Positions 14,935 through 56,015 of a DNA stretch of 64,000 nt are shown one piece after another. The stretch comes from an uncultured delta proteobacterium. GTDB taxonomy: Bacteria; Desulfobacterota; Syntrophia; Syntrophales; Smithellaceae. Position 1 is the first letter of the stretch, and every line of letters begins with the position of its first letter. The stretch is from assembly GCA_963811325.1 (NCBI GenBank), contig CAWEQT010000001.1, forward strand, positions 1,301,859 through 1,365,858, in the 5' to 3' direction. The notes beneath the pieces were generated by a model that was given only the letters and a program-made list of their open reading frames with translations, was not told where the DNA came from and did no database searches. The translations under genes and the position numbers were made by a program.

Positions 14935-14947
14935 CAAGTCCTTGATA
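14935..14947 (-). promoter_or_regulatory. Putative IHF site
   Basis: TATCAAggacTTG matches WATCAANNNNTTR and lies between the enhancer and the sigma54 promoter. Confidence 0.5.
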
Positions 14948-15025
14948 AGTAAAGGTTTATATATGTTAATAATTTTTTCTGTTGAATTACATAAATTCTT
15001 TATTACCCAAGTCATGAACATGATT

Positions 15026-15042
15026 TGTAAAGGTATCCAACA
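15026..15042. promoter_or_regulatory. 17-bp enhancer box (putative PrsR site)
   Basis: TGTAAAGGTATCCAACA (TGT-N11-ACA), 131 nt from the -24 element. Confidence 0.7.
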
Positions 15043-15126
15043 CTTTTTAAGCGTCAATATTAACCTTAATTGAAGATACGATAATAAATACAATGAATTA
15101 CGATGAATTTTTACAGAAATTTACTT

Positions 15127-15143
15127 TGTAAAGGATTTCGACA
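15127..15143. promoter_or_regulatory. 17-bp enhancer box (putative PrsR site)
   Basis: TGTAAAGGATTTCGACA, 101 bp from the previous box. Confidence 0.7.
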
Positions 15144-15276
15144 ATGCCTTTAAATAGTAATACTGACAGATAATATTAGATGGATGATAAAACTTTGTAG
15201 ATGTTGGCGGTAATCGAGACAAAGCTTAATTGGGCACTGTATGTCAAGGCATGTATGGGTAAGTGATAAGACAAAT

Positions 15277-15315
15277 AAAAACCCCTCGTGAAATATTTTA
15301 TTTCTTGCGAGGGGT
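15277..15315 (-). terminator. Terminator downstream of PEP-CTERM gene 2
   Basis: ACCCCTCG...CGAGGGGT stem followed by TTTTT on the minus strand. Confidence 0.65.
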
Positions 15316-15524
15316 AAACGATAACCACTTATGTCGTCTCGTCTTTTACTGGAGTCATTCATTTTACACTTGATCTTTTAAGGGTGATAATCACCACGAA
15401 GACCCTGTGTTTTCTTTTTTATGTTAACATCCAGTAGAATAGACTCAATACGTGCATAGCAGTACCTCGTTTGCTTAGTTTATTTCTAGAAGAACGCTAC
15501 AATGCATTATATTTATAATTTGAT

Positions 15525-35910: not shown

Positions 35911-35956
35911 CTTTCTCCGGCTGTCATTGGAGGAACACCCTGCACACCGTGGCAAT

Positions 35957-35998
35957 TTATCCTTTACCCTTGCACCTTGAGCTTTGTGCCTTTATCCT
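35957..35998 (+). repeat. Phased heptamer array C
   Basis: TTATCCT TTACCCT TGCACCT TGAGCTT TGTGCCT TTATCCT, ending 3 nt before the ATG at 36002. Confidence 0.88.
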
Positions 35999-36001
35999 CA
36001 T

Positions 36002-37246
36002 ATGAGAAGCATTAAGACAATAAGAGACGTAGTTGGCTGGGGGTTGTGCGTCGGATGCGGTGCTTGCCAGTATTTTTGCGGCAAGGATTCTATAGAGTTA
36101 AAAAATATTGAAACAATAGGCATCCGGCCAATATTCAAAAGAGCACAAGACGTAAATTATTCAGAATGCCTTAAGTTCTGTCCCGGCTATTCAATTGGCG
36201 CAACAAGATATTTACAAGACAACGAGCACGTAATATCCGATCCGTTAATCGGACCTGTATTGGAAATCTGGCAGGGCTATGCTATCGACAAAGACATTCG
36301 TTATAAAGCTTCATCAGGAGGAGCGCTTTCTGCCCTTGCTTCATATTGTTTAGAAAAAGAAAATATGGAATTCGTATTACATGTCGGCATGGATCAGGAT
36401 ACACCTTGGTATAATAAAACAGTCCAAAGCAAAAGCAAAGCCGATTTATTAGCACGAGCAGGTTCGCGCTACGCCCCTTCCTCACCATGTGAAGCTATGG
36501 CGCTTATTGAGGCAAGCTCACGGCCTTGCGTATTTATCGGCAAACCATGTGATGCCGCAGCCGTTTCCGCTCTTCGGAAGTATCGGCCCAAATTAGATAA
36601 AAACCTGGGACTTGTTTTAACGTTTTTTTGCGCTGGGCCGCCCTGCACAGCCGGAACTCTTTCTTTACTGGAAGAACTCCGTATAGAAAAGCAAACAGTG
36701 AATGAGATACGTTACAGAGGGAAAGGTTGGCCGGGTCATTTTCAAGTGTCACTTAATAACTGTACTGAATATAAAAAACTAACGTATGAAGAATCGTGGG
36801 GGAAATTGGTAAAACACCACCGGTCATTTCGCTGTAATCTTTGCCCCGATGGTTTGGGAGAACTAGCGGATATATCGTGCGGTGACGCCTGGCATTTATA
36901 TGACAAGCAGAAAGATGATTATGGGCAATCACTTGTACTGGCGCGCTCCGAACGGGGCCGCGAGATCCTGAATCGGGCGATGGAAAGTGGTTATTTGCAA
37001 TTAGAACCTTCAAAGCCGGCAGATGTCATAAGAGCGCAACCAATGACTGGCAGGCGCGCCGAGATTTTTGGGAGACTATTGGCAATGAAAACCTTATTTA
37101 TGCCTATACCCAAATTGGTAGGTTTCTCTCTTGTTAAAGCTTGGATGAAAAATCCAATAAAAATTAAAATTAAAACTTATCTAGGCACATTAAGACGTCT
37201 CCTTACTCGCGGCCTCTGGCATCAGAAACCGTTGAATCCGGCATAA
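36002..37246 (+). CDS. Coenzyme F420 hydrogenase beta-subunit-like Fe-S protein
   Basis: CVGCGAC...CP ferredoxin motif, SSGGALSAL, GSRYAP, FIGKPC, YRGKGWPG, CNLCPD, DISCGDAW. Confidence 0.85.
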   Translation: MRSIKTIRDVVGWGLCVGCGACQYFCGKDSIELKNIETIGIRPIFKRAQDVNYSECLKFCPGYSIGATRYLQDNEHVISDPLIGPVLEIWQGYAIDKDIRYKASSGGALSALASYCLEKENMEFVLHVGMDQDTPWYNKTVQSKSKADLLARAGSRYAPSSPCEAMALIEASSRPCVFIGKPCDAAAVSALRKYRPKLDKNLGLVLTFFCAGPPCTAGTLSLLEELRIEKQTVNEIRYRGKGWPGHFQVSLNNCTEYKKLTYEESWGKLVKHHRSFRCNLCPDGLGELADISCGDAWHLYDKQKDDYGQSLVLARSERGREILNRAMESGYLQLEPSKPADVIRAQPMTGRRAEIFGRLLAMKTLFMPIPKLVGFSLVKAWMKNPIKIKIKTYLGTLRRLLTRGLWHQKPLNPA

Positions 37247-38125: not shown

Positions 38126-39256
38126 ATGATAATTGAACATTCACAATCCAAATACAATTTCAGTGTCGACCAAATATTAAAAAATGAATGGTCTAATGCT
38201 TTAAATAAATTTTTAGATGCAAACTTCTACCAAACATGGTCTTACGGAGAACTAAAATGGAAGATGGGTAATTTGAGCCATCTTGTTTTAAAAATGAACG
38301 GGGAAATAGTTGCTTTGGCGCAATTAAGGATTGTCAGTCTCCCAATCATAAGAAAAGGCATTGCTTATTTAGCGCGAGGACCAATCTGGAGACGGCGAGA
38401 CAGAGAACAGAAATTTGATATTTTTCGCAATGTTATAAAGTCATTATTTAAGGTATATGTTGTTGAAAAAGGACTTTTATTAAGGATTCGTTCAAATGAA
38501 ATTATGGACGGATGCGATACAATTCATGAAATATTGTGTGAAGAAGGCTTTGTAAAAAAATCATCATTTCCTGATAGAACATTAATAATAGATTTAACAC
38601 CTACTATAGAAGAAATACGTCAAAACCTTGGTAGGAAATGGCGTCAAGCTTTAGCACGAGCAGAAAGATTGTCGTCACTTGATTTAGATTGCGGGAGTAG
38701 TGAAAAGCATTATAGGATTGCGTTGAACCTCTACAAGGAAATGCATGGGAGAAAACAATTTGCCGAATTTGTAGATATGGAGAGACAAGGTTTAATACAG
38801 CAAGACCTACCGGAATCACTTAAAATGAAGATAATGATATGCCGTTTAAATAATGAGCCAATTGCTGCTCTCGGTTGGTCATCAATTGGTGATACTGGAT
38901 TGCCACTTATCGCAGCAACTGGTAATAAATCTGTAGCTTTATCGACGAATGCCAGCAATTTACTGTGGTGGAAGATGATTGAAGATCTGAAAGCTCAAGG
39001 TTGCAGTTTCTGCGATGTTGGTGGTGCAGACCCTGTATTAAATCCTGGTGGTTATAAATTTAAGTCCGGCTTACTTGGGAAGAATGGAAGAGATGTATGT
39101 TTTCTTGATCCCTACGAAGCATGCAATAACGCCGTAAGCTCCTTTTTAGTAAACTGTGGAAATCAAATTATACACAGTTCATATAAAATCAAAACGAAGC
39201 TCAGAAAAACAGAAGATTTAAAAGAAATTAATACACCTGAAGCCAGCGATTCGTAA
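38126..39256 (+). CDS. FemAB-like GNAT family protein
   Basis: FYQTWSYG, RGPIW, KWRQALARA, LLWWKMI, GYKFKSG. Confidence 0.75.
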   Translation: MIIEHSQSKYNFSVDQILKNEWSNALNKFLDANFYQTWSYGELKWKMGNLSHLVLKMNGEIVALAQLRIVSLPIIRKGIAYLARGPIWRRRDREQKFDIFRNVIKSLFKVYVVEKGLLLRIRSNEIMDGCDTIHEILCEEGFVKKSSFPDRTLIIDLTPTIEEIRQNLGRKWRQALARAERLSSLDLDCGSSEKHYRIALNLYKEMHGRKQFAEFVDMERQGLIQQDLPESLKMKIMICRLNNEPIAALGWSSIGDTGLPLIAATGNKSVALSTNASNLLWWKMIEDLKAQGCSFCDVGGADPVLNPGGYKFKSGLLGKNGRDVCFLDPYEACNNAVSSFLVNCGNQIIHSSYKIKTKLRKTEDLKEINTPEASDS

Positions 39257-41258: not shown

Positions 41259-42152
41259 TTGATTAAGAACAATTACGTCTTAATAACAGCAGCACGTAAT
41301 GAAGAAAAGTATATAGAAAATACTATAAAGACGATTATCTCGCAAACTGTTTTACCGGTTAAGTGGATGATTGTCAGTGATGGTTCAACTGATAGAACGG
41401 AAGAAATAGTTTCACAATATGTAGCACAGTACAACTTTATAACGCTTGTTCATAAAACAGCAAACACAAACGTACAAGTTGATTTTGCTTCCAAGGTTCA
41501 TGCAATCATGATAGGATACAAAATGCTTGCCGGTACTGATTATGACTTTATTGGCATACTCGATGGCGATGTCACCTTTGATTCTTTTTACTATGAAAAT
41601 ATTTTAAATAAATTTGCCGAAAATTCTAAGTTGGGCATTGCGGGGGGAATTATCCTTGATCAATACGATGATCATTATATAAGAAGATCGCCAAGTAATT
41701 CAAATTATGTTTCCGGCTGCATTCAACTTTTTCACCGGGCGTGTTACGAAGAGATAGGTGGCCTACTCCCCATCAAAGAAGGCGGGGAAGACACAATTGC
41801 CGCCATAACAGCTCAGATGAAGGGATGGGTGGTAGAAGCCTTTGAAGAACTTAAGGTGTATCACCACAAACTCAGCAAAACCACGCGGGGTAAATTAAAA
41901 GAAGCCTTCAGAGCAGGCCGAATGTTTTACGCGCTGGGTAGCCATCCGTTATTTGAGATATTTAAATGTATCAAAAGCCTCACCACCAAACCTTACTTAT
42001 TGTTTGCTATGACAAGGATGTGTGGTTATCTTCTGCCGTTTTTCAAGAAACAAAGACGACCTGTAACGGAAGAATTTATTCAATTTTTGAGAAAAGAGCA
42101 ACTTTCCAAATTAAAACAAATTTTATCCAAAGAGAGTGAAGGTCATGCTTAA
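41259..42152 (+). CDS. GT2 glycosyltransferase
   Basis: LITAARNEE, VSDGSTD, LDGD, GGEDT. Confidence 0.9.
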   Translation: MIKNNYVLITAARNEEKYIENTIKTIISQTVLPVKWMIVSDGSTDRTEEIVSQYVAQYNFITLVHKTANTNVQVDFASKVHAIMIGYKMLAGTDYDFIGILDGDVTFDSFYYENILNKFAENSKLGIAGGIILDQYDDHYIRRSPSNSNYVSGCIQLFHRACYEEIGGLLPIKEGGEDTIAAITAQMKGWVVEAFEELKVYHHKLSKTTRGKLKEAFRAGRMFYALGSHPLFEIFKCIKSLTTKPYLLFAMTRMCGYLLPFFKKQRRPVTEEFIQFLRKEQLSKLKQILSKESEGHA

Positions 42153-43602
42153 GCACAACAAGATATTGTTTATACCATTGGTGCTGTTGTTAATGCTGGG
42201 CTATTCAACCACAATCTTTTCCGCCACTTACTATATAGATTATGCCAGCGGGTCAGATGCCAACAATGGAACGTCGATCACACAACCATGGAAACGCTGC
42301 CCGGGGATGAAAGGTTTTTCCGGCAGCTATTCCCATTCAGCAGGAGATGTATTCGTCTTCAAAGGCGGAGTAATCTGGCCTGTGGCAGCTTTGCGATTAA
42401 CAATTGCCAAAAGTGGGGCTAACGGCAATCCTGATATTTACATAGGTGGACAAAGGTGTGACGTATCAGGTTTGGCGTCGTGTAATGGAGGAACTGCATG
42501 GGGTAGTGATTATCCGATATTTGATGGCGGGGCTGTTAATGGGATGCTTGCTATCTATAGTTCCGGTAAATCACATATTACGATTGACGGAATAAAAATA
42601 GTCAATGTTGGATATACCGATGGAAGTGGACAGGCGATCGCATTTAGTGGCGGGTCAGGTATAACAGTCAAAAACTGCTGGCTTCAGCCAAACGGTGTCA
42701 ACGCCTTTGCTTACGGCGCATCATCGGGAACGTACTCCAAGGTTTACTTCCATGACAATATTATCAAGCAAGCCGGCAGGGTTCATGTGAGTGTGGGTGA
42801 TGCGACCTGTGATGATTTCCAGTTTTATAATAATACAATGTATGGCAGCTATGATTATGATCGGAAGTCTTATCATACGGATGGTTTCATGATTGGGGCA
42901 GATGGAGTCGGTACATGGAAAGCCACCAATCTCAAAATATACAACAACAAGTTTGTGGGGGATTGGACACATGGCGCAACAGCGTTTATCTATATTAATG
43001 GAACACCAAAGACCTATTATGGATGGAAGTATGTCTATATCTATAATAATCAGTTAACATCTGAGAATGCCACGGGATGCACACTATCACCTGCCGCTAT
43101 ATTTTTTGCCGGTGGGCATAGCGATGTAAAGGTCTATAATAACACCATTGATGCAAGATCAAGTTCAGGAACTCCAACAAGTCATTGTATAGCTTTCGCA
43201 TGGCGGATTAACAACATAGAGGTTAAAAATAACATATTAACAGGATGTGATAATGGCATCACAATCGGCTCGGATACCACTGGAACAGTTGACCTTGATT
43301 ATAACCTTTATTACACACTAAGTAATAATCATCTGATATGGGATAGTAGATCTGCTGTGAACAAAAGATGTAATACGCTTTCCGGCTGTCAAGGTTCACC
43401 TGTTTATCAGGAAGCACATGGTAAAGTAGGCGAACCGAGGTTTATGGCATTACCGCATGGCGGAGTTGCTGGATCGGGTGATTGGCATTTACAGGCCGGT
43501 TCACCAGCGAGAACCGGCGGCGTTAATCTTGGCATACCTTATACAAGTGATATCGAAGGTGTAGTCGGAGGGAACAGGATTGGCGCTTATGCAAGAAAAT
43601 AA
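42145..43602 (+). CDS. Secreted right-handed beta-helix protein, paralog 1 (no C-terminal anchor)
   Basis: Signal peptide, ATYYIDY..G.D.NNG...PWK, Asn/Gly-rich beta-helix repeats, C-terminal WHLQAGSPA...RIGAY. Confidence 0.75.
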   Translation: MLKHNKILFIPLVLLLMLGYSTTIFSATYYIDYASGSDANNGTSITQPWKRCPGMKGFSGSYSHSAGDVFVFKGGVIWPVAALRLTIAKSGANGNPDIYIGGQRCDVSGLASCNGGTAWGSDYPIFDGGAVNGMLAIYSSGKSHITIDGIKIVNVGYTDGSGQAIAFSGGSGITVKNCWLQPNGVNAFAYGASSGTYSKVYFHDNIIKQAGRVHVSVGDATCDDFQFYNNTMYGSYDYDRKSYHTDGFMIGADGVGTWKATNLKIYNNKFVGDWTHGATAFIYINGTPKTYYGWKYVYIYNNQLTSENATGCTLSPAAIFFAGGHSDVKVYNNTIDARSSSGTPTSHCIAFAWRINNIEVKNNILTGCDNGITIGSDTTGTVDLDYNLYYTLSNNHLIWDSRSAVNKRCNTLSGCQGSPVYQEAHGKVGEPRFMALPHGGVAGSGDWHLQAGSPARTGGVNLGIPYTSDIEGVVGGNRIGAYARK

Positions 43603-43651
43603 ATTCATTTTGATAGCTAATCAAACAACATAATTCCGGATACGTAAATCA

Positions 43652-44974
43652 ATGGAAAATGCTTTAAACCTAACGCCTTTAGGCCTTGCTTTCCTCGTGA
43701 CTATGGGACTATTAATTTTAGTCCTGCCGCGACGACTGGTTTTTCTGCCCTTTATCATGGCCGTCAGCTATACGACGTTGGGGCAGCGGGTTATGATCGC
43801 GGGACTAAATTTTGACATTATTCGAATCCTTCTACTGTTCGGCTGGGTACGACTGCTGATTCGCGGAGAGTTAAAAGCATTCGACTTCACTGTCATAGAC
43901 AAACTTATTATTGCGTTTGTTCTGGCAAGCATTATTACGGCAACCATTCTGACACCAACTATGGATACGTTTATCAATCGAATGGGGCAGGCTTATAATA
44001 CGATTTTAACTTTTTTTCTGTTTCGCTTTTTAATCAGAGACTTGGATGAAATGATTTCCGTGCTCAAAATAACGGCCATTGTCATCCTACCGCTTGCTCT
44101 TTCTATGATCATCGAAAAATCAACACAAAGGAATATCTTTTCCATGTTTGGCGGTGTTTCTGAATTTACAATGATTCGTGAGGGACATTTGCGCTGTCAG
44201 GGCCCTTTCAGGCATCCCATTCTTGCGGGAACTTTCGGTGCTACCCTTTTTCCACTGTTTCTTGCTCTCTGGAACCGACATACAAAGGGGCGAACCTTCG
44301 CTTACATCGGCATCATATCATCTACCATAATTACAGTGACGTCAGCTTCATCGGGACCGCTCATGGCTTACCTGGCATCACTTATCGGGCTTTGCTGCTG
44401 GCCTTTGCGCAATAAGATGCGTCAGGTCAGATGGCTGCTTCTGGCAGGCATTGCGATGCTAGCATTATTTATGAAAGCCCCGATCTGGTTTTTGATCGGC
44501 CGGTTAGGCTTTATAACAGGCGGTACAGGATGGTCACGTTCTGAACTAATAGACCAAGCCGTTAAACATTTTAATGAGTGGTGGTTACTTGGAACGACAT
44601 ACACTGCAGACTGGACATTCGGTGTAGGCAATGGTTTAGTTACTTTGCCAGATGACCCCAACATGGTTGATATTACAAACCAATACTTATTTATCGGAGT
44701 ACAAGGCGGTATTTTACCACTCATATTATTTATATTGATCATTGCATACTGTTTTCAGAGTCTGGGCAAAACGCGCCGCATTCTGGCTGATCAGTCAAGC
44801 TATAAGCAAATTATTCCATGGGTTCTGGGCAGCGCTCTTTTTGCACATGCAGTAACCTTTATATCTGTAGCCTATTTTGATCAAATGAGACTAATGTGGG
44901 TTTGGCTGCTGTCTATTATCGCGCTTGTCGCAAGTCTGTCCCTCAAGAAAAAAGATAAACAAACATTTTCCTAA
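43652..44974 (+). CDS. O-antigen ligase/Wzy-like polymerase
   Basis: About 11 TM segments, RCQGPFRHPILAG, TGWSRSEL, DITNQY. Confidence 0.78.
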   Translation: MENALNLTPLGLAFLVTMGLLILVLPRRLVFLPFIMAVSYTTLGQRVMIAGLNFDIIRILLLFGWVRLLIRGELKAFDFTVIDKLIIAFVLASIITATILTPTMDTFINRMGQAYNTILTFFLFRFLIRDLDEMISVLKITAIVILPLALSMIIEKSTQRNIFSMFGGVSEFTMIREGHLRCQGPFRHPILAGTFGATLFPLFLALWNRHTKGRTFAYIGIISSTIITVTSASSGPLMAYLASLIGLCCWPLRNKMRQVRWLLLAGIAMLALFMKAPIWFLIGRLGFITGGTGWSRSELIDQAVKHFNEWWLLGTTYTADWTFGVGNGLVTLPDDPNMVDITNQYLFIGVQGGILPLILFILIIAYCFQSLGKTRRILADQSSYKQIIPWVLGSALFAHAVTFISVAYFDQMRLMWVWLLSIIALVASLSLKKKDKQTFS

Positions 44975-45080
44975 TCAACAGGCACTAAGAACCTTTTTTA
45001 AAATAATCGGGCAACCAATTAATTTCATCTTTTTATTACATGTCCAGACATTTAACAAAAAATTAGGGGGTTTATTTTTC

Positions 45081-46271
45081 ATGTCATCTACTAATAATCG
45101 TTTTTCGGTTTTAATTGATCATCTAACCGTTGATATTATTACATCAGTGGAACGATTTAATAGTTTAAAAGAAGAGTGGGGAAGTCTATTCAACTCTTGC
45201 AACAATCTAAATGCATTTCAAACTTTTTTCTGGAATTATGTATGGTGGAAACATTATGGCAAAGGAATGCAGTTGTCAATTTTTACAGTTCGCGAACATA
45301 ACAACCTTGTGGGTATAGCTCCATTTATGGTGAAGTCGCGTCTTGGCATACAGGAGATTGAACCTATTGGTGGTGAACACCATTACAATTTTGCGTTGAT
45401 CATGGACAACCAGCGTTATGATGTGGCCATGGCAATCGCAATGAAGCTCGCCGGGTGCTTTCCGAAAGGCCTTATTCATATCCCATACTTTGCGGCAGAC
45501 ACCATTTCCATTAACGTTTTTATGGCAGCGCTCAATACGTATGATTGGAAAGAGACGCGGTGGACCAGGAACATCTCTCATTACGTTTCTGAAGGCAATG
45601 GCTTCAGTAATTACATGGCACACAAATCAAAAAAGTCGCGAGCTACACTCAAACGTAAACGTGCGCGACTCGAGGAAACTGGTTTAGTTAATTTAATCCA
45701 TATTTGCCTGGATGATTTAACCGAAAAGTCTGTGGAAAGAATAGCACAAATACAGAAACAAAGCTGGTTAGCAAGACGTGGTCAAGAATCTCTGTCTTCA
45801 GCATTCTATAAAGAAGTGATCTCCTCTCTAGCCCAAAACAATCACGCGGAAATTTTTCTTTACGAACAAAATGGCGAAGACATAGCGTATATTCTTAATT
45901 TTTATTCTGGAAATATTTGCTATTGTTTATTCCTTGGATTCAGTGAAACGAAAGCGCACTTGTCACCAGGGCAAATGCTCATGCTGGAGAATCTGCAAAA
46001 AGTTTTAGATAGTGGTATCACTGTTTATGATTTTTTATATGGTGAAGCTGAATATAAAAGATTTTGGGCTAATCGAACAAAGTATGTGTGTCGCGCCGTA
46101 TGCTACAGAGGTTATTGTGCATCTATCGCGTCATGGCTCCCCCACAGACTGCATGGTACTTTTTCGAAATATCAGACACTTAAAATTATTTTGGTTAAAA
46201 TGCGTAGATTTAAAACAAAAATATTTCAACATTTGAACTTTAATCCCACAAAATCGGATCACAATAGTTAA
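45081..46271 (+). CDS. CelD/BcsL-like GNAT acetyltransferase
   Basis: FQTFFW..WWKHY, LVGIAPF, LSPGQMLM, YDFLYGEAEYKRFWA. Confidence 0.8.
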   Translation: MSSTNNRFSVLIDHLTVDIITSVERFNSLKEEWGSLFNSCNNLNAFQTFFWNYVWWKHYGKGMQLSIFTVREHNNLVGIAPFMVKSRLGIQEIEPIGGEHHYNFALIMDNQRYDVAMAIAMKLAGCFPKGLIHIPYFAADTISINVFMAALNTYDWKETRWTRNISHYVSEGNGFSNYMAHKSKKSRATLKRKRARLEETGLVNLIHICLDDLTEKSVERIAQIQKQSWLARRGQESLSSAFYKEVISSLAQNNHAEIFLYEQNGEDIAYILNFYSGNICYCLFLGFSETKAHLSPGQMLMLENLQKVLDSGITVYDFLYGEAEYKRFWANRTKYVCRAVCYRGYCASIASWLPHRLHGTFSKYQTLKIILVKMRRFKTKIFQHLNFNPTKSDHNS

Positions 46272-46297
46272 AATTTGAAAAACATGAAGGAAAGAAA

Positions 46298-47488
46298 ATG
46301 AAGAAGCCGTCCGGATACGATATAAAAGTTATAAGATCATTGGAAGAAATTGAAGATGTTAGGAATTTCTGGGAAACACACCAATGCTACCCGGATGCGG
46401 ATATTGATTTCTATATTGCGTTTTGCCGTGCCAATAAAGCAAATGTGAGCCCTCATATTACTGTTCTTATGAAGCAGGGTAAACCTGATACCATGATGAT
46501 AGGTCGTCTTGACAATATAGATTTTAAATTTAGATTCGGCTATAAAATTTTATTCAGCACAAAAATAAAATCACTGAGTATCCTTTATGGTGGTATTATC
46601 GGTAACCTTACCGATCCGGCTTGTAATATGCTTTTTGAATCAATTATGGATTCGCTTTTAAAAGGTGATGCCGATATTGCATTTTTCAATCATCTGGCCT
46701 TAGATTCAAACATGTACAATCTTGCAACGAGGCTTCCTCATTATTTTCTGCGCGATCATTCGATTAAAGTCAATCAACACTGGCGGTCAATATTGCCGGA
46801 TTCATTGGACGAGTTTGAAAAAACACGTCCCAAAAATTTCAGGAACAATTTTAAAAAATATACCAAAAGATTAAATGATCAATATGGGAAAGATAAAATT
46901 ATTAAGATTTATCGGTCTATGACTGAATATGTAACTTTACTGAAGGATATAGAAACGATTGCATCCAAAACATTTCATCGTGGCTTGGGCGTTGGTTTTC
47001 TGAATGATCAAGCTACTGAAAACAGAATTTTGCTTGCGCTCAAGCAGCAACGTTTTAGAGCTTACATTATGTATATAGGCCAGCAACCATGCGCCTTTTT
47101 AACTGGTGTGAAATACGGGCATACTTTTTTCCCATGGGCCACGGGCTACGACCCGTCATTTAATCAGTATAGCCCGGGCACTCTAATTATCATGGAAATG
47201 TTTAAGGCACTATACGAGGAAGGCGATATTCAGACGGTTGATTTCGGTTTTGGTGAAGCTTTTTACAAACACAATTTTTGCAACGATAATTGGCAGGAAG
47301 CATCTGTATATGTTTATGCGCCAACTTTAAAGGGCGGATTGCTCAATGCAATTAAGTCACTGCTAGTTATCATTTCAACTCTTACTGAATACGCGTTAAA
47401 AAAACTCAATTTGACCGATAAAGTAAAAAAGATATGGCGGGACAAACTTGCACCGGGCAAAAACAATAATAATGAAAGTTCTGGATAA
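46298..47488 (+). CDS. CelD/BcsL-like GNAT acetyltransferase
   Basis: GYDPSFNQYSPGTL, VDFGFGEAFYK. Confidence 0.8.
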   Translation: MKKPSGYDIKVIRSLEEIEDVRNFWETHQCYPDADIDFYIAFCRANKANVSPHITVLMKQGKPDTMMIGRLDNIDFKFRFGYKILFSTKIKSLSILYGGIIGNLTDPACNMLFESIMDSLLKGDADIAFFNHLALDSNMYNLATRLPHYFLRDHSIKVNQHWRSILPDSLDEFEKTRPKNFRNNFKKYTKRLNDQYGKDKIIKIYRSMTEYVTLLKDIETIASKTFHRGLGVGFLNDQATENRILLALKQQRFRAYIMYIGQQPCAFLTGVKYGHTFFPWATGYDPSFNQYSPGTLIIMEMFKALYEEGDIQTVDFGFGEAFYKHNFCNDNWQEASVYVYAPTLKGGLLNAIKSLLVIISTLTEYALKKLNLTDKVKKIWRDKLAPGKNNNNESSG

Positions 47489-48920
47489 ATTAAAATCATT
47501 AAGACATTCAGAAAGCCTTCTTGGGCGCAGCGTTCGCAGCGGCGGCATTTTAGCTGCAGGCAGCCTATCAGAAAATCTATTAAGATTTATCCGCAATATC
47601 ATTTTAGCCAGATTACTTGCACCGGATGCATTTGGTCTTATGGCAACCATTATGGCAACAGTTGCCGCTGCTGAGGCATTTGCCGAGGTTGGCCTGACCA
47701 AATCGATTATTCAGAATAAGAAAGGTTCGGAAAAAGAATTTTTAAATGTCATCTGGTGGTTTTCAGCATTCAGAGCAATTATGTTATATATGATTGCTTT
47801 TTTTGCGGCGCCATTAATCGCTGATTTCCTTAATAAACCCGAGGCAACACTCATACTGCGCACTGCCCTTATTGTCATATTATTAAGAGGGTTAACCAGC
47901 CCCAACATTTTTTTGCTTCATAAAGAATTAAAGTTCAACAAATGGGTAATTTTCACACAAAGCGCGAGCATACTTGGTATACTTGCCGCTATAATATCGG
48001 CATTCTATCTTCATAATGTCTGGGCTTTGGTGCTGGGCTATGTTATTGAGGCCTTTTTAATTTTTTTATTTTCCTATATATTCTATCCTCTCATACCAAA
48101 GTTTCAAATCAACTTATCGCATGCCAAAAATATTATGAGCTTCTCAAGAAAATTCTTCGGTCTGCCGATCTTGATGGTGCTATATGGTCAAGCTGATAAC
48201 TTTGTAATTGGTAAAGTGCTGTCACTAAGCGTATTGGGTTTGTATTTTTTGGCACGAGATCTGGCAGATATGCCCAATAAGATATTTTCAAGAATCAGCC
48301 CTGTATTTATGCCGGCTTTTTCTCTGATTCAGGATGACAGAGAAAAACTGAAAAATACTTTACTTAAAATTACGGAGATAATTGTGACTTTTGGGCTGCC
48401 CTTTTTTACATTTTTAATTGCCTTTTCCAGTCCGTTATTAGGAATCATCTACGCACCGGAGTATAGTATAGTGGCGATTCCTTTCAGTATTTTTTGTTTA
48501 TCTGTTTTTCTTTATATCCTGTCGGTGCTGATGATGAACGTTGTTTTTGCCACAGGCAACCCTGATCAATTTCGAAACGCGTCACTTGCCAGAACATTTG
48601 TTTTCTTGATTTTACTATACCCCGCAACAAAGTATCTGGGACTGATAGGCGCGGCACTTTCCACGGTACTTTCCATGTGCCTGGCTTTTGCAATACAAAT
48701 CCATTACCTAAAAGACTTGTTAAATATTAATATACATGAATATTTTGCCAAGTTTATCAAAGGAGTTAACTACTCTTTCATTGTATTAATTCCCGGCATC
48801 GTTTTCGTGATCGCATTGCCTTCACATAGAATTATAGCAATGGTAATCGGCTCTGTTTTTTGTATACTAGCATGGTGCTTCGGCGTTGTCTCTTTCAGCC
48901 GCCAGAAAATGAAAAAGTAG
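47472..48920 (+). CDS. Wzx flippase
   Basis: IILARLLAPDAFG, QADNFVIGK, LGLYFLA, 12+ TM segments. Confidence 0.9.
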   Translation: MKVLDKLKSLRHSESLLGRSVRSGGILAAGSLSENLLRFIRNIILARLLAPDAFGLMATIMATVAAAEAFAEVGLTKSIIQNKKGSEKEFLNVIWWFSAFRAIMLYMIAFFAAPLIADFLNKPEATLILRTALIVILLRGLTSPNIFLLHKELKFNKWVIFTQSASILGILAAIISAFYLHNVWALVLGYVIEAFLIFLFSYIFYPLIPKFQINLSHAKNIMSFSRKFFGLPILMVLYGQADNFVIGKVLSLSVLGLYFLARDLADMPNKIFSRISPVFMPAFSLIQDDREKLKNTLLKITEIIVTFGLPFFTFLIAFSSPLLGIIYAPEYSIVAIPFSIFCLSVFLYILSVLMMNVVFATGNPDQFRNASLARTFVFLILLYPATKYLGLIGAALSTVLSMCLAFAIQIHYLKDLLNINIHEYFAKFIKGVNYSFIVLIPGIVFVIALPSHRIIAMVIGSVFCILAWCFGVVSFSRQKMKK

Positions 48921-48963
48921 AAACATGTGTTTTTGATATTGATAAAATGGATGAAATAACTTT

Positions 48964-49602
48964 ATGCTGCTGATAAAATCCCTCAATAAAATATTATATA
49001 GGCTGTATGCCTTAAACAACAGGCGATTGCGTGATATCATTCAAAGTATTATAAGTAATAATGAAGGTGGCGCTGTCCGCTCAAAAACCTTAAGAAAGAT
49101 TTTTCATGACTATCATGATATCACAATCGGGATGTACAGCTATGGCGGCTGCTTCGATTTACACAACATCCCTGCAGGAACGGTGATTGGAAGATATTGC
49201 TCATTTGCACGTAATGTATACATCTTATCCGGCAATCATCCGTTTACCAATAAATCAATGCATCCTTTTTTCTATAGTCCCTATTTCGGTTATGTTGACG
49301 AATTATCAATCACCAGAACAAAGTTGGTCATCGAAAATGATATCTGGATAGGGCAAAACGCGATCATATTGCCGTCTGTCAATAGGATCGAAAATGGCGC
49401 AGTAATAGCTGCGGGTGCTGTTGTTTCTAAAAATGTGCCGCCATTTGCTATCGTGGCAGGTAATCCGGCAAAAATTATTAAATACCGCTTTTCTCAGCAG
49501 GTTATTGACCAAATAACGCAATCAGCCTGGTGGGAAAAGGACATTAATGAAATTAAAGAGAATCATGATGAGTTTAAAAGTTTTTTAAAACCAATTGAAT
49601 AA
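48964..49602 (+). CDS. CatB/Vat-related O-acetyltransferase
   Basis: IGRYCSFA, IENDIWIG, IAAGAVVSKNVPPFAIVAGNPAKIIKYRF, AWW. Confidence 0.88.
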   Translation: MLLIKSLNKILYRLYALNNRRLRDIIQSIISNNEGGAVRSKTLRKIFHDYHDITIGMYSYGGCFDLHNIPAGTVIGRYCSFARNVYILSGNHPFTNKSMHPFFYSPYFGYVDELSITRTKLVIENDIWIGQNAIILPSVNRIENGAVIAAGAVVSKNVPPFAIVAGNPAKIIKYRFSQQVIDQITQSAWWEKDINEIKENHDEFKSFLKPIE

Positions 49603-49824
49603 CTCAAAAAAATATCTTTATCGTTTTGTCCCCCGCTTGCTGGGGTGGCAAGTTTTTCTAAAACTATAAAAAAACGCATAACAGCTTGCGGCCAAAATTC
49701 AAACATGGCAATTGCCATTTGAAAGATTCAATAAACAATATTCACTTTTATAAAAGAATTAAATTGCTGATAGGGATGATAGTAATCAGGATAAAACTCA
49801 GAAATTAGATTGAATCATATAGTC

Positions 49825-49865
49825 AAAACAAAAGGCAGCGTCGAATTAGCCCTGCCTTTTGTTTT
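49825..49865. terminator. Bidirectional terminator between the EPS operon and the convergent gene
   Basis: AAAACAAAAGGCAG-loop-CTGCCTTTTGTTTT. Confidence 0.8.
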
Positions 49866-50029
49866 TCTTGAGGAAAGGGTTTTTGACTTGGACCAAATTG
49901 GCCTTGGTATAAGGCAGATACGTTATAAAAAAGGATGCTTTCTCAGTGGCCAATAATAATAGGGGCCAGAGTTGAAAATTACTCTACCCTCTATTGTTAT
50001 TCTGTTTTCTTGCAACTATTAAAGTACTT

Positions 50030-52012
50030 TTACAAAAGTCTGTCTCTGTCCGCTCTGAAAGTAAGTGCCGCTAATTGCGCGTGTGCATGCTTTTCCATTT
50101 TCTTTCTGATGATGATGACCATAATCATTAGAAGCATGGTTAGCAGCAGCATCTCTGCAGCGTTTGGATAAGACATAGCGTAAACGATAGGTGTTAATGC
50201 CCATCTTGTTGCTATTTTTAAAAAGTCATTTGCTGCAATGACTTTTGCAACAGGTGGTGAATTTCTGTAATAAAATTCCACAAACTTTTTGCCAAAGTAA
50301 TTGGTCAAAAGATAATGATCGCGGAAGTTTCTCAATATATATACATGCGGATCGAGATAAGAACCATAGGCAGCCGTGGCAATGAAGCATCCGCCCTTAC
50401 CATTACCGCCATCATCATCAGTACCACTGTCTGCCGCAAAATCATACGCGCCCACATCCCACGGAGTTTGACGGGTATTATATAAATAATCAGTAGTGAA
50501 TGTCCCAGAAAGATTATTTCCCATGTTGATAGCAGGAGAATTAGATTGTAATTGCCAGTTTCCCGACCCTGTAACACCACCACTTGGTAAAGCAACGAAA
50601 CCTATATACGAACCGGAATAAGCAGTATTTGCTTTGCCTTGCGTTTCCTGTCCCTGTGCTTGACAAGCAGCAAGAGTATTACACCTGTTTTGTCCCGGTC
50701 TTTCATCGTATATTAGATGATCACCGTAAACCGTGTTATAGATATTATAATCAATGGTAATTGTTCCGATTGAGGATGCTGATATTATAATAGCATTGTC
50801 CGTTCCAGAGAGAATATTATTTTCAACCGTGGCACTCCCTATCACACTATCCAAGAATATCCCGGTAAACGCAACGGCCGGATTAGAGGCACAGTTATCG
50901 CCTGAAATAGTATTATTAAAAATATTGATATTTTCCTTATTGCCGTTGTATATTGATATCGCGCCAGGACAAAAGGCTTCAGAAGTACAAGTATTACTTT
51001 CGGGGGCTATAACATTGTCATATATCCATGCTCCATTTACACTATTATATCCAGGTGTGCCGTTCACATAAATGGCTGCTGTTCCTGTCATGTTTCCTCT
51101 AAACATATTATGATGGATATAAAGATTAGTCATCCAGGTATTATTAGCAGGAGTAGTATTCGCCCCGACCATAAAACCATCTGCATGATAAGTCTGAGGA
51201 TTGTAAGTTCCTAGGCCGAGAAAGATATTATTATATAATTGAATATCATCCATATAAAAAGTAAGATCAGTAGTGTTAATAACTACCCTACCCGAATTTT
51301 CTATGAGATTATCGTGAAAGAGTAGATGGGCAGTATTATATCCAATGCCGTGGCTAAAAGCATTGACAGCATTTGTGTTGAGTATGTTATTCTTCACCTC
51401 CAGGCTTGAAGTAGTCCCAGCAGCTATTCCCTGTCCTGACCCGTCCGTATATCCTGCGTTATCTATCTCAATACCGTCTATGGTCACATAGGACAATCCG
51501 TTTTTAATAGATATCACTAATGCCCCATCAACAGCTCCACCATCAAAATGTGGATAACCTGTTCCCCATGCTACTCCGCCATTGCAGGAGACAGAAGCGT
51601 TTGAGCCGCAAGGATAGTTTATTCCGTTACAGGCAGAAGTACCGTTAAGAAGAAATGGCGAGGGTGGGGTATAGCCGCATTGCTGACCACCCATGTAAAC
51701 ATCAGTAGCTCCATTTGCACCGGAGTTTTTTATTGATAATACAGTACTGTATCCAGATTGCATAGGCCATGTCACTCCGCCTTTGAAGACAAAGACATCA
51801 CCAGCGGAGTGAGAATATGTACCCGTAAATCCGGGCATTTCAGGTGCAAATTTCCACGGCGTTGAAGTGGTTGTCCCATTATTGGAATCCAAACCGTTGA
51901 CATAGTCTATGTAGTACGTAGCGGCTATTGCTATTTTAGAAGATAAAAATATGAACAGACACGTTACAAAAATTACTCCTATTTGATTTAATATTCTGCT
52001 TCTTTTTATCAT
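50030..52012 (-). CDS. Secreted beta-helix protein, paralog 2, with CFI-box-CTERM sorting domain
   Basis: Signal peptide, shared N-cap, linker [10 protein letters not shown], then [10 protein letters not shown]...LRNFRD...[10 protein letters not shown] helix and RKK. Confidence 0.82.
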
Positions 52013-52022
52013 ACTACCTCCA
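51669..52022. repeat. 354-bp near-identical duplication of 55195-55548
   Basis: Covers the SD, signal peptide and N-cap of paralogs 2 and 3, with long identical stretches. Confidence 0.9.
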
Positions 52023-52406
52023 TTTTTCTTAAATAACAAAGGCATCCATTGTTCTCTTACGCATACCATCCGGCGGTATGATCAACAAAAAAGAGCCTGT
52101 AAACTGATCTGTGCGAATAGAATAATTTCCATATAAATGCTAAAATGTGTTGGTGCATAACAGCAAATTTTGAAATTGTCAATGCCAGATTGGCTGAGGG
52201 ACTCGTCCATTTATTTATCATATCCTGAACGACAGGCAATAATGGTTATGCCATAAAACAATGGTTGATAATTTGTGGACAACAGTAATAAGTGATTGTT
52301 AAAATATCTTGGGAGCCATTAAAAGTGTAAACTATGTATCCGTTCTAAAATGTGAACGCTGTTTCAGTTGCACAGTGGATGTATTAATGTAGCCGTAATT
52401 TTCATC

Positions 52407-52431
52407 GTAGGGCGAGTTTTCCAAACACGCC
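52407..52431 (+). repeat. GTAG-type REP-like palindrome
   Basis: GTAG-GGCGAGTTT-TCC-AAACACGCC. Confidence 0.5.
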
Positions 52432-52642
52432 GCTTAGGACTTCGAACTGCTTGGGGAACGGAGTCTGCCCGTCGGCCGGAGGGTGACACCTCTCTTAAAA
52501 TCTCTCGACTTCGCGCCAGTGGAGGATATGAAATGACATTTTTCCTATTGCGAAACAGCCTCCAAGTCCGGAATGATGAATAGCAGAGTTGTGCAGGTCT
52601 CTACTTGCCCAGTCCCCCAATAACATCGGGTGCTGAAGCAGC

Positions 52643-52685
52643 GAAAGGACTTCTTCCCTGTGTCAGTTCAGGAAGAAGTCCTTTC
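52643..52685. repeat. 15-bp perfect inverted repeat after the paralog 3 stop codon
   Basis: GAAAGGACTTCTTCC-N13-GGAAGAAGTCCTTTC. Confidence 0.75.
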
Positions 52686-52688
52686 TAT

Positions 52689-55535
52689 TTACCTGCGTTT
52701 TTTCGAATACAACATAGATCTGGCAAAAGTTGCTGCAACAGATTTTGCTACGGTCATAGTTACGGTGCAAGTGCCTGTACCGGAGCATCCTCCACCTGAC
52801 CAACCGGACAAGGTGGATTCACTATTCGCCAAAGCGGTCAAGGCCACTGATTTCCCAGACTCATAATTTACTGAGCAGGTCGAGCCGCAATTGATGAGGC
52901 CATCACTGCCGGTAACAGTCCCTGTTCCCGTACCAGATTTTGTAACGGTTAAGTTATATGTAGTTATGGCAAAAGTTGCAGTAACTGATGTCGCTGCGGT
53001 CATAGATACAGTGCAAGTGCCTGTACCGGAGCATCCTCCTCCTAACCAACCGGTAAAAGTATATCCGCTAGTTGCTGAAGCGGTCAAGGTCTCTGATGTT
53101 CCCAGATCATAATTTGCTGAACAGGTCGAGCCGCAATTGATAGTACTATCACTGCTGGTGATAGTCCCCGCTCCCGTAACAGATTTTGTAACGGTTAAGT
53201 TGTATACAGGTATAAAAGTTGCTGCAACAGATGTCGCTGCGGTCATGGTTACGGTGCAAGTTCCTGTACCGGAACATCCACCTCCTGACCAACCAGAAAA
53301 AATAGATCCGTTATTCGCCAAAGCAGTCAAGGTCACTGATTTTCCAGACTCATAATTTACTGAACAGGTCGAGCCGCAATTGATGAGGCCATCACTGCCG
53401 GTGACAGTCCCAACTCCAGTACCAGATTTTGTAACGGTTAAGTTGTTTGTAGTTATGGCATAATTTGCTGTAACAGGTGTCGCTGCTGTCATGGTTACGG
53501 TGCAAATCCCTGTACCGGCGCATCCTCCTCCTGACCAGCCAGTAAACGTATATCCGTTATTGGCCGAAGCGGTTAAGGTCACAGATGTTTCTGGAGCATA
53601 ATTTGCGGAGCAGGTTGAGCCGCAATTGATGCCTGATGGATTGCTTGTCACTATACCATTAGCTGATATAATTAATAGAGCGTATTGAGTTTTGCCACCC
53701 AGGTCTGCCTCATAATTATAAGCACCCATTCCCCATGTTGAGATTGTTTCATTAAGATAATCAGTCGTGAAAAGTGATGAGAGATTAACGCCAACATCTT
53801 TAGCTGGGGAAGATGATTGCAACTGCCAGTTTCCCGTATTGTCACCTGTAGGAATAGTTACAAAACCTATGTATTTACTGGAATAAGCAGATGAATTATT
53901 GATTCCGTGAGCTTCATATCCTGCGTTTTGACAAGCGGCAAGAGTATTGTATCTGTTCGATGTCCTATTGTCCCATATTAAATGTTCACTTAAAGCCGTA
54001 TTATAGATGTCGTAATCGGCCACTATTGTGCCTGAACAGGTAGCCGTCATTATAATCGAATTATCAGTGGCAGAGAAGATATTGTTTTCAATCGTTGCAT
54101 CATTTACCTGTTCTAAATAAATTCCCGTTGGAGGGTTAGCGATACAGGCATCCATAGCTATCGTGTTGTTATAAATGCTGATATTCTCGAACTGTCCACT
54201 TTGGGCTGCTATCGCAGCAGGAGAAAAGGGTATGCCATAGATACAAGTTTCGGGAGCTATAACATTATCGTATATTAACGCACCGTTTATACTGTTGAAA
54301 TAATAAGTGGTGGGGGTCGTTGAAGACATGGTTACTTCTATTGTTCCCCCTGCGGAAGGAGTAAAACTCCCATTATATGTTTGTTCTTGTATTATTTCCC
54401 CTGGTATAAAAGACGCATGAGCTATAGTATTAAGAATAAGCGTTGTGCTTGTTACCTGTTGAATTTCTCCATACGCCCCCGATGTCAATCCTAACGCCCA
54501 ATAAGTCTCTCTCGAAGCTGTAAATCCTGCTGTTATCGGATTGGATGTCGGGGTAACAATTTTAGCACTTGCACCGTTCATGTAAATAGCCGCTGATGCC
54601 CCCCAATCACCTCTGAAGATGTTATGGTGGATTTTAACATTAGTCATCCAGTTTCCGGTATTTTGAAAAGTATTAGTTCCAATCATAATGCCGTCTGTAT
54701 GATAACTATGATTATTATAAGTACCTCTTCCCATGAAGATATTATTGTAAATTTGAGTATCATCGGAATAGGATACATTGTCGGATTGATTAATGACGAC
54801 ACGACCTGAATTTTCTATGAGATTATCGTAAAAACATAAGTGGGCTGTGTATCCGCCGTTTACAGTACTATTCCCAATATTATGATTAAAGGCATCTACA
54901 GCATTAGTATTTAAGACACAATTTTTCACTTCTAAACTGGATGTTGAATTGCCGTTTATTCCAAAACCAGTCCCATCGGTATAACCGACATTATAAACTC
55001 TTATTCCATCTATTGTTATGTAAGATAGACCGGCAGACATATTTATTCCGTAGCCAGCAGAAATAGAATTGTTAGAAGTAAATGTCGGATAACCTATCCC
55101 CCAAGGAGAACCGTCATTGCAGGAGACAGAAGCGTTTGAGCCGCAAGCCTGAGTTTGCGAATCCGACGAACACCGCACAAAAGGCGTTGCAGGAGTATAG
55201 CCGCATTGCTGACCACCCATGTAAACATCAGGAGTTCCATTTGCGCCGGAGTTTTTTATTGATAATACAGTACTGTATCCAGATTGCATAGGCCATGTCA
55301 CTCCGCCTTTGAAGACAAAGACATCACCGGCGGAGTGAGAATATGTACCCGTAAATCCGGGCATTTCAGGTGCAAATTTCCACGGCGTTGAAGTGGTTGT
55401 CCCGTTATTGGAATCCAAACCTTTAACATAATCTATGTAGTACGTATCTGCTATTGCTATTTTAGAAGATAAAAATATGAGCAGGCAGGTTACAAAAAAT
55501 ACTCCTATTTGATTTAAATTTCTGTCTCTTTTCAT
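52689..55535 (-). CDS. Secreted beta-helix protein, paralog 3, with four C-terminal InlB B-repeat-like domains
   Basis: Shared N-cap; four repeats of LTVTKSGTG.GTVT.SDG.INCGSTCS.NY..G.SV.LTA.A..G..F.GWSGGGCSGTGTCTVTMT. Confidence 0.82.
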   Translation of the reverse strand: MKRDRNLNQIGVFFVTCLLIFLSSKIAIADTYYIDYVKGLDSNNGTTTSTPWKFAPEMPGFTGTYSHSAGDVFVFKGGVTWPMQSGYSTVLSIKNSGANGTPDVYMGGQQCGYTPATPFVRCSSDSQTQACGSNASVSCNDGSPWGIGYPTFTSNNSISAGYGINMSAGLSYITIDGIRVYNVGYTDGTGFGINGNSTSSLEVKNCVLNTNAVDAFNHNIGNSTVNGGYTAHLCFYDNLIENSGRVVINQSDNVSYSDDTQIYNNIFMGRGTYNNHSYHTDGIMIGTNTFQNTGNWMTNVKIHHNIFRGDWGASAAIYMNGASAKIVTPTSNPITAGFTASRETYWALGLTSGAYGEIQQVTSTTLILNTIAHASFIPGEIIQEQTYNGSFTPSAGGTIEVTMSSTTPTTYYFNSINGALIYDNVIAPETCIYGIPFSPAAIAAQSGQFENISIYNNTIAMDACIANPPTGIYLEQVNDATIENNIFSATDNSIIMTATCSGTIVADYDIYNTALSEHLIWDNRTSNRYNTLAACQNAGYEAHGINNSSAYSSKYIGFVTIPTGDNTGNWQLQSSSPAKDVGVNLSSLFTTDYLNETISTWGMGAYNYEADLGGKTQYALLIISANGIVTSNPSGINCGSTCSANYAPETSVTLTASANNGYTFTGWSGGGCAGTGICTVTMTAATPVTANYAITTNNLTVTKSGTGVGTVTGSDGLINCGSTCSVNYESGKSVTLTALANNGSIFSGWSGGGCSGTGTCTVTMTAATSVAATFIPVYNLTVTKSVTGAGTITSSDSTINCGSTCSANYDLGTSETLTASATSGYTFTGWLGGGCSGTGTCTVSMTAATSVTATFAITTYNLTVTKSGTGTGTVTGSDGLINCGSTCSVNYESGKSVALTALANSESTLSGWSGGGCSGTGTCTVTMTVAKSVAATFARSMLYSKKRR

Positions 55536-55593: not shown

Positions 55594-55683
55594 GCCCGGT
55601 AGTTCAGCCACCTTATCCCCCTATGAAGACTTAGGTCTGTAACTTTGCGTCCCACCTTTTCAGATGGTTTGCCTTTTTCAAGC
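55594..55683 (-). ncRNA. c-di-GMP-I riboswitch aptamer, copy 3 (gene-proximal)
   Basis: P1 GCUUG/CGGGC, GGCAAACC, P2 with GAAA tetraloop, GGGACGCAAAG, P3 with CCUAA...UAAGG receptor. Confidence 0.9.
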
Positions 55684-55759
55684 TTTGGTTGTTATTACAC
55701 GCTCTTTTAAAATTTGTTATTTTGTATTGGCAGGATTGCTGGACGGATCTTTTCATGTT

Positions 55760-55849
55760 GCCCGGCAGTTCTGCCACCTTATCCACTTACGAAGACTTAG
55801 GTCAGTAACTTTGCGCCCCACCTTTTCAGATGGTTTGCCTTTTTCAAGC
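55760..55849 (-). ncRNA. c-di-GMP-I riboswitch aptamer, copy 2
   Basis: Same fold, 166 bp upstream; compensatory change in P3 relative to copy 3. Confidence 0.9.
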
Positions 55850-55925
55850 TTTGGTTGTTATTACACGCTCTTTTAAAATTTGTTATTTTGTATTGGCAGG
55901 ATTGCTGGACGGATCTTTTGATGTT

Positions 55926-56015
55926 GCCCGGCAGTTCTGCCACCTTATCCACTTACGAAGACTTAGGTCAGTAACTTTGCGCCCCACCTTTTCAAGTGGT
56001 TTGCCTTTTTCAAGC
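55926..56015 (-). ncRNA. c-di-GMP-I riboswitch aptamer, copy 1
   Basis: Same fold, a further 166 bp upstream; P2 variant CCACUU-GAAA-AGGUGG keeps pairing. Confidence 0.9.

Follow-up and report, generated by a model that had tools for sequence, protein, structure and literature searches.

Three secreted beta-helix paralogs of an XrtA/PEP-CTERM exopolysaccharide locus in an uncultured Smithellaceae bacterium: candidate enzymes for trimming of the cell's own polymer

A beta-helix protein that processes glycan and is encoded in an exopolysaccharide (EPS) locus is, as a general design, nothing new, and another instance is to that extent less surprising. VexL, the Vi-antigen lyase, is a beta-helix depolymerase encoded in or next to the cluster of its own capsule. 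RbmB, the Vibrio cholerae lyase of Vibrio polysaccharide (VPS; PDB 9OZD/9OZL), is a beta-helix depolymerase placed in the same way relative to the cluster of its own matrix polysaccharide, and the mannuronan C5-epimerases AlgG and AlgE are periplasmic or secreted beta-helix proteins from a polymer operon that act after polymerization by His/Asp chemistry. WceF of Pantoea stewartii is a beta-helix stewartan hydrolase encoded in the stewartan cluster, and it shows lectin-like agglutination with stewartan (PMC7949094). Here we describe three genes, P0001, P0002 and P0003, in a 64,000-nucleotide stretch of DNA from an uncultured delta proteobacterium of the Smithellaceae (assembly GCA_963811325.1, contig CAWEQT010000001.1, positions 1,301,859 to 1,365,858; the whole stretch is referred to as the window). 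They belong to a family that is itself uncharacterised, and we read them as candidate enzymes that bind and trim the cell's own EPS in three forms and places. By analogy, their closest functional counterparts may be WceF, RbmB, VexL and AlgG.

With WceF, AmsF and WcaM the window proteins share the arrangement of a secreted right-handed beta-helix encoded inside the biosynthetic cluster of its own Wzy-dependent EPS, and with it the proposed role, trimming or remodelling of that EPS. Unlike WceF, there are three paralogs here with different tails and with riboswitch control. The signal type also differs, since Tat export is reported for the WceF family whereas the window paralogs look Sec-type, and WceF was absent from the top 50 fold matches of P0001. 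Membership in the WcaM/WceF family was rejected after an hhalign comparison of the family profile with Escherichia coli K-12 WcaM (probability 0.5%, E 0.11, 35 columns). The fold match to RbmB was weak (E ~2e-3). AlgG and AlgE belong to a synthase-dependent pathway, whereas the window locus is Wzy-dependent, and direct reading showed the epimerase motif DPH(D/E) to be absent from P0001-3, in which the conserved turn is H-x-D-G.

A common beta-helix core and its conserved site

The three genes and the most conserved site of the family are as follows.

42145..43602, + strand: P0001, a 485-residue, tail-less beta-helix protein with a Sec signal, embedded in the EPS operon; corresponds to database copy P0004 (485 residues)
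42874-42885, + strand: H247-T-D249-G turn of P0001, the most conserved site of the family
50030..52012, - strand: P0002, a 660-residue paralog with a signal peptide, a beta-helix core (50429-51922), a CFI-box-CTERM, and a C-terminal transmembrane segment with a basic tail; corresponds to database copy P0032
52689..55535, - strand: P0003, a 948-residue paralog with a signal peptide, a beta-helix core (53703-55448) containing an internal insert, and four InlB-B-type repeats

All three are intact open reading frames, and their paralogy, proposed earlier in a sequence-only reading of the window, is clear from a three-way alignment in which the two paralogs are 47% and 45% identical to P0001 over a common core of ~470 residues. 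In the database search P0002 (as P0032) matched P0001 with E=6.6e-102. The 3.16-Mb genome (2 contigs) has these three family copies only. The longest frame of P0001 begins at 42136 (488 residues) and the ATG at 42145 is its likely start, which gives 485 residues and overlaps the stop of the preceding glycosyltransferase gene by 8 nt (ATGCTTAA); residue numbers of P0001 (His247, Asp249, etc.) follow the 488-residue frame starting at 42136. The longest frame of P0002 (50030-52069, - strand) begins 19 codons upstream of the likely start, which we placed at the ATG at 52012 because the database copy has 660 residues and because it is preceded by the Shine-Dalgarno sequence GGAGGT, the same as that of P0003. 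Each protein begins with a basic and hydrophobic segment ending in ..FSA before TYY or in ..AIA before ATYY, immediately ahead of the TYY N-cap, and on a plain reading all three would be exported via Sec signal peptides.

A tree of the core groups P0002 with P0003 in a small clade and puts P0001 elsewhere; the ancestor that it has in common with them spans 57 leaves. Over their first ~320 nt the coding sequences of P0003 (55215-55535, - strand) and P0002 (51690-52012, - strand) are 90-100% identical, the rest being ~60% identical, and the sequences upstream of the two coding regions are unrelated. The near-identical stretch, which spans the signal peptide and N-cap, has the look of a recent gene-conversion tract.

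AlphaFold2, run with a 64-sequence alignment, predicted a right-handed parallel beta-helix for P0001, with a pLDDT of 92.7 and a pTM of 0.91. Strand triplets recur regularly between about residues 140 and 395, and there is an NN ladder at positions 208, 233, 271, 305, 336, and 366; the P0003 core was predicted with equal confidence. The fold named from the letters is the fold of the models, and the shared core is a predicted right-handed parallel beta-helix. A Foldseek search against the PDB gave 23 matches at E<=1e-3, nearly all of them beta-helix proteins. Almost all of the fold matches are carbohydrate-active, with lacto-N-biosidases of glycoside hydrolase family 136 (GH136) best (E ~1e-8), followed by polysaccharide lyase (PL) families PL9 and PL6, GH28, the adhesin PfbA, AlgE4, GH87, and RbmB. 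The P0003 core additionally matched the HK620 tailspike. In BFVD the best matches were beta-helix proteins of uncultured tailed phages (template-modelling [TM] scores of 0.53-0.63, 17-18% identity). PF13229 (Beta_helix) matches 26 of 64 relatives. A single-sequence search of PDB sequences returned noise only, and a profile search found GH136 best (E=7.6e-9), the alignment covering mostly the N-cap and C-terminal cap.

The lowest-entropy column of the whole protein is His247, present in 221 of 225 aligned relatives, and the next are G275, Asp249 (206 of 225, plus 14 with Asn), G250, D130, and T282. The H-x-D-G turn singled out in the sequence-only reading is therefore the most conserved site of the family, and the N-cap, the Cys loop and the YH[TA]DG[FI]M[IV]G motif listed there all fall in invariant columns of the three-way alignment. 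The Cys loop is limited to a subclade, with Cys at both positions in ~43-45 of the 225 relatives. By the coil register of the DSSP strands, H-x-D-G is placed at the point where the long loop that follows the "YNN-TMY" strands runs into the next strand of the sheet, and D276/W277, T282/Y286, and E310 take equivalent loop-to-strand positions on the following two coils; His247, G275, Asp249, and G250 thus all fall at loop-to-strand junctions of consecutive coils; the sheet face on which the conserved residues appear to lie is taken from this register and from conservation on the predicted model. The equivalent face is the substrate cleft in beta-helix lyases and hydrolases (PL1, PL9, GH28). A block of the N-cap, W52..P56-G-M58..Y65-x-H67..G-D71..K76..W81 (42280-42380), is nearly invariant and, taken as a block, the best conserved of the family, beyond most of the helix, with the pattern W-K-x-x-P-G-M-x-G-F..Y-x-H..G-D-x-F-x-F-K-G-G..W in which Trp and Met are invariant.

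The GH136 lacto-N-biosidases (LnbX, TnX, BsaX, ErLnb136; PDB 5GQC, 7V6M, 7V6I, 6KQT), the best matches by both profile and Foldseek, have in common with the family an N-cap, TYY[IV]..G.D.N.GTS..PWK, and a C-terminal cap, L...SPAI.AG....D..G....D.GA.E. They differ in having a pocket for a disaccharide and no EPS context, and the TM-score to the family is ~0.4. In ErLnb136 the catalytic acid/base and nucleophile are D568 and D575, seven residues apart (PMC7335108). Direct reading found D-x6-D to be absent from P0001 at the corresponding GDWTHGATAF stretch. There is also no counterpart of the obligatory all-alpha, LnbY-like GH136-I helper, since the models contain no alpha domain beyond the signal helix and the flanking genes encode a family 2 glycosyltransferase (GT2) and a Wzy-like protein. 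The LnbX model NF047897 does not match P0001-3 and matches 7 of 64 relatives (best E, 1.9e-4). GH136 membership was rejected because the family lacks both the catalytic pair and the helper subunit. From the GH28 motif set NTD/(G)DD/GHG/RIK, which lies on consecutive coils, P0001 has no DD, GHG, or RIK, and H-T-D-G alone resembles NTDG; PF00295 (GH28) matches 1 of 64 relatives (E=0.0094).

The exopolysaccharide locus and the spread of the family

P0001 lies among the genes for polymer assembly.

41259..42152, + strand: GT2 glycosyltransferase gene; its stop overlaps the start of P0001 (translational coupling)
43652..44974, + strand: Wzy-like putative polymerase directly 3' of P0001, with at least nine hydrophobic segments; Wzy_C 23.4 bits, below the 31.7 cut-off
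47448..48920, + strand: Wzx/MOP flippase in the same operon as P0001

The position ascribed to P0001, inside the operon and directly before the polymerase, is the one observed, as the next gene encodes a Wzy-like protein with nine or more putative transmembrane segments. Other genes of the locus encode an XrtA-system chain-length determinant (TIGR03007, 282.7 bits, cut-off 278.85), an exosortase (TIGR02602, 131.5 bits, cut-off 105.55), a PEP-CTERM protein (TIGR02595, 24.3 bits, cut-off 16), an export protein, an outer-membrane protein, an ATPase, a Tyr kinase, a priming transferase, and a PrsK/PrsR-type kinase with a sigma-54 regulator, along with amino-sugar genes, glycosyltransferases and two deacetylases. 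Judged by this gene content, the locus is a classical XrtA/PEP-CTERM exopolysaccharide system.

The short, tail-less form of the protein was found inside Wzx/Wzy operons on seven of seven contigs (exact-protein look-up), at identities down to ~30%. On five of these the order is GT2-(GT2)-helix-Wzy-like-(FemAB-like)-Wzx (L015/L016, L024, L025, L026, and L018), and on L017 and L027 the gene after the helix is Wzx. Strong EPS markers were present within 8 kb at 17 of 35 full-length loci from different species in a low-sensitivity BLAST search. By length, the markers accompany 16 of 23 proteins of <=625 residues versus ~2-3 of 12 longer multidomain ones. Among the genomes of the genus, the Wzy type of the window occurs in G000, G005, G012, G020, and G024, which are exactly the genomes with strong family matches; our own hypergeometric estimate for this co-occurrence is ~1e-4. 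The distribution of close XrtA orthologues differs from that of the beta-helix family. Since the Wzy type co-occurs and XrtA is distributed differently, the family tracks polymer type and not the sorting system.

The window also contains, at 34624-37246, 38126-39256, and 44925-47488 (+ strand), a pyruvyl transferase gene paired with one for an FrhB/FdhB-like protein, and four FemAB/Acetyltransf_6-type genes (including 30015-31193). The same pyruvyl transferase/FrhB/FemAB gene set recurs beside the beta-helix gene in distant relatives (L015, L024-L027). The recurring tailoring genes point to an unusually decorated polymer.

An exhaustive hidden Markov model search returned 2,867 clusters at 50% identity with E<1e-30 and 23,072 with E<1e-10. 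Every relative comes from an uncultured organism, and the named genomes are all metagenome-assembled; they include Smithella/Smithellaceae, Syntrophorhabdales, Acidobacteriota, Nitrospirae, Fibrobacterota, Verrucomicrobiota, Raymondbacteria, and several lineages of the candidate phyla radiation. Judged from these searches, the family is large, spread across many phyla, without a dedicated Pfam model, and matches no known catalytic motif set. No tblastn match to it was found in 50,697 phage records. Full-length members do occur on IMG/VR contigs predicted to be viral (L107-L111), in co-directional gene arrays without EPS genes, and a PHROG scan of ten proteins from these contigs (seven neighbours and three beta-helix proteins) gave no match.

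Swapped tails, inserts and riboswitch control

The paralogs differ in what is attached to, or placed ahead of, the core.

50183..50389, - strand: CFI-box-CTERM of P0002 (NF041770, 101.7 bits, cut-off 40, residues 561-629)
52722..53687, - strand: four tandem Flg_new_2, or divergent InlB B-repeat, units of P0003 (PF18998, 4 stretches, 101.3 bits, cut-off 23.6, residues 617-938)
54291..54572, - strand: all-beta insert of ~95 residues in the P0003 helix (residues 322-415), right after the conserved T-A-x-I-Y strand; strands predicted, pLDDT 61-82
55595..56015, - strand: three c-di-GMP-I (cyclic di-GMP) riboswitch aptamers in tandem in the leader of P0003, scoring 76-78 bits each against a gathering score of 35

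P0001 has no C-terminal tail. The CFI-box-CTERM of P0002, defined as a C-terminal domain of ~69 residues that begins CFIATAA and scores at least 40 bits, is followed by a hydrophobic segment (residue 615 of the 660-residue form) and a basic tail (~50033-50161), and the repeat units of P0003 start at about residues 617, 697, 777, and 859. The tails are thus those described in the sequence-only reading (none, CFI-box-CTERM, and four InlB-like repeats), and its idea of swapped C-terminal modules is borne out both within the window and in congeneric genomes, where the modules include a Gly-rich transmembrane tail, CFI-box, and List_Bact. The paralogs of G012 and G020 end in CFI-box-CTERM or List_Bact repeats. 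A paralog in G024 (L021, G024:C33, 12892-14850) has the Gly-rich transmembrane tail (SSGGGGGGAFGFIPILMALAICGLAWRRK), and directly after it lies a 190-residue rhombosortase-like gene (14823-15395; TIGR03902, 77.5 bits, cut-off 84); this pair is the identical core type with a further predicted sorting system. The C-terminal additions among relatives comprise FN3, He_PIG, and InlB-B repeats, a type IX secretion system tail, choice-of-anchor D, and the CFI-box. Tail swapping on one core is well supported by these comparisons. The C-terminus of P0003 (52692-52733) ends in ..ATFARSMLYSKKRR and the InlB-repeat paralog of G024 in ..AAFAKSMSRVRR, with a short basic motif in common.

The cap motif L.LQ..SPA..G.NL....D..G......GAY is present in P0001, P0002, and P0003. 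The choice-of-anchor Q model (NF041518, 58 residues, threshold 25 bits) matches P0002 weakly (27.9 bits), gives no match to P0001 and P0003 at E<=0.1, and matches the C-terminal helix cap in 55 of 64 relatives (E<=0.01). The name fits one core with alternative sorting tails, as here; it labels a short cap domain for annotation and implies no function. A literature search found no papers on CFI-box-CTERM and none relevant to choice-of-anchor Q.

The insert of P0003 is not mentioned in the sequence-only reading. Its insertion site is also used in ~20 of 225 relatives, with inserts of 75-128 residues, many of which have the common pattern ..GQV..G.TSG...KIY....GGW.GSGTG... By analogy with the insertion domain of the HK620 tailspike, the P0003 insert may lie beside the proposed cleft.

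Between the third aptamer and the start codon of P0003 are a CCUCCA anti-Shine-Dalgarno and a UGGAGG Shine-Dalgarno sequence. Directly after the P0003 stop (52640-52690, - strand), a hairpin, GGACTTCTTCC...GGAAGAAGTCC, followed by TTTCGC, is terminator-like, and P0002 would therefore be a separate transcription unit. By eye, there was no convincing GG-N10-GC element of a sigma-54 promoter 5' of P0002.

Readings of function

In the reading that we favor, the polymer would lie along one sheet face of the helix, and the His247/Asp249 turn, together with D276/W277, T282, Y286, and E310 on the next coils, would form a site that binds the cell's own EPS chain, made by the Wzx/Wzy system of XrtA/PEP-CTERM type, and that probably catalyses its cleavage or some other processing. 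Being coupled to the GT2 gene and placed ahead of the polymerase gene, P0001 would work on nascent polymer or in the periplasm. P0002 would be held at the membrane or cell surface by its CFI-box-CTERM tail. P0003, because of its InlB-B repeats, insert domain, and riboswitches, would act in the matrix depending on biofilm state, with translation gated by the three c-di-GMP riboswitches. Glycan binding, catalysis, and substrate we infer for the family, and the three locations, periplasm, membrane, and matrix, from the tails alone. That the three paralogs are self-EPS binding and trimming enzymes deployed in this way seems to us about evenly poised between right and wrong.

Several observations weigh against it. 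The TM-scores to solved structures in the PDB search were low, about 0.3-0.47, and the fold matches include a surface adhesin, PfbA. The cores of P0001-3 are recognized neither by Pfam (E<=0.1, including PF13229) nor by NCBIfam, and in profile alignments the catalytic DGQAWDAD segment of GH136, the closest of the characterised families, falls in an insert that has no counterpart in the family. The Shine-Dalgarno sequence of P0003 is paired with CCUCCA when aptamer 3 is enforced, yet it is paired in the unconstrained fold too. Finally, G012, G020, and G024 keep this Wzy type with tailed paralogs only and no embedded P0001-type copy. Because of these three genomes we take the embedded copy to be accessory; the idea that it is an obligate partner of the Wzy type was rejected.

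PfbA, the triple riboswitch 5' of P0003, and tails typical of surface proteins (a sorting signal and InlB-B repeats) would also fit non-catalytic lectins or adhesins, in which the helix binds polymer or a surface without cutting; P0002 and P0003 would then tether matrix to cell, like CdrA/Psl or RbmC/Bap1, and P0001 would chaperone nascent polymer. A triple tandem c-di-GMP riboswitch array reportedly also precedes a collagen-adhesion gene in Bacillus thuringiensis. The lectin-like agglutination of stewartan by WceF itself (PMC7949094), and the fact that no known catalytic motif set is matched, point the same way. However, a single His (221 of 225) and Asp (206 of 225) outdo the Asn ladder in conservation among relatives of <30% identity, a pattern more typical of catalysis, and a processing enzyme is a better match than an adhesin for a copy that lacks a tail, lies within the operon, and is translationally coupled. 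We consider purely binding proteins unlikely, though they are a serious contender.

Improbable, in our view, are periplasmic polymer-modifying enzymes, such as an AlgG/AlgE-like C5-epimerase or another post-polymerization tailoring enzyme of a uronic-acid-containing or pyruvylated EPS. AlgE4, AlgE6, and an alginate epimerase/lyase are among the fold matches (E ~4e-4 to 5e-3), the locus is rich in tailoring genes (deacetylases, pyruvyl transferase, FemAB-like enzymes), and epimerases use His plus Asp chemistry; but the AlgE matches are weaker than the GH and PL matches, the order of residues here is H-x-D-G and not DPH(D/E), and a step during export gives little reason for anchored and matrix paralogs. 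Glycanases for foreign polymers (EPS of other species, nutrients, or the targets of phage-like depolymerases), with a chance linkage to the EPS locus, would account for the phage beta-helix proteins being the best viral fold matches, for the full-length relatives on IMG/VR contigs without EPS genes, and for the long multidomain relatives lying mostly outside EPS loci. The synteny of the short form in Wzx/Wzy operons across phyla and the co-occurrence with the Wzy type in the genus argue against this explanation, as do the absence of a PHROG match for a tail context and of any tblastn match in the phage records, and it is to us the least probable of those considered, a very remote one. Of the enzyme reading made from the sequence, the fold, the tails, the operon position, the conservation of the turn, and the linkage to EPS have stood. 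The core could be placed in no characterised CAZy-type family.

A wider form of the trimming reading, conceivable but one that we hold rather doubtful, would have the family as a new GH or PL family with a His/Asp-centred active site and as the part that regularly trims self-EPS in XrtA-type Wzx/Wzy pathways, in many uncultured phyla. Chain length would be set by the embedded copy during synthesis, and a change in c-di-GMP would lead the anchored and riboswitch-gated paralogs to reshape or dissolve the matrix.

In wastewater and anaerobic-digester communities, the home of Smithella-type syntrophs, flocs and granules form through the action of exosortase/PEP-CTERM EPS systems, and we know of no enzymes that shape or dissolve the matrices of these systems. 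The operon-embedded beta-helix protein and its surface and matrix paralogs are a concrete candidate for this role, with a candidate active site at His247/Asp249 and a built-in tie to c-di-GMP signalling; for P0003, an OFF riboswitch would fit a dispersal enzyme and an ON switch a matrix protein. If only lectins, the proteins would still be a defined matrix-cell linker for exosortase/PEP-CTERM systems. Should they prove active, they would establish a new CAZy-type family comprising about 3,000 sequence clusters, nearly all of them from uncultured bacteria.

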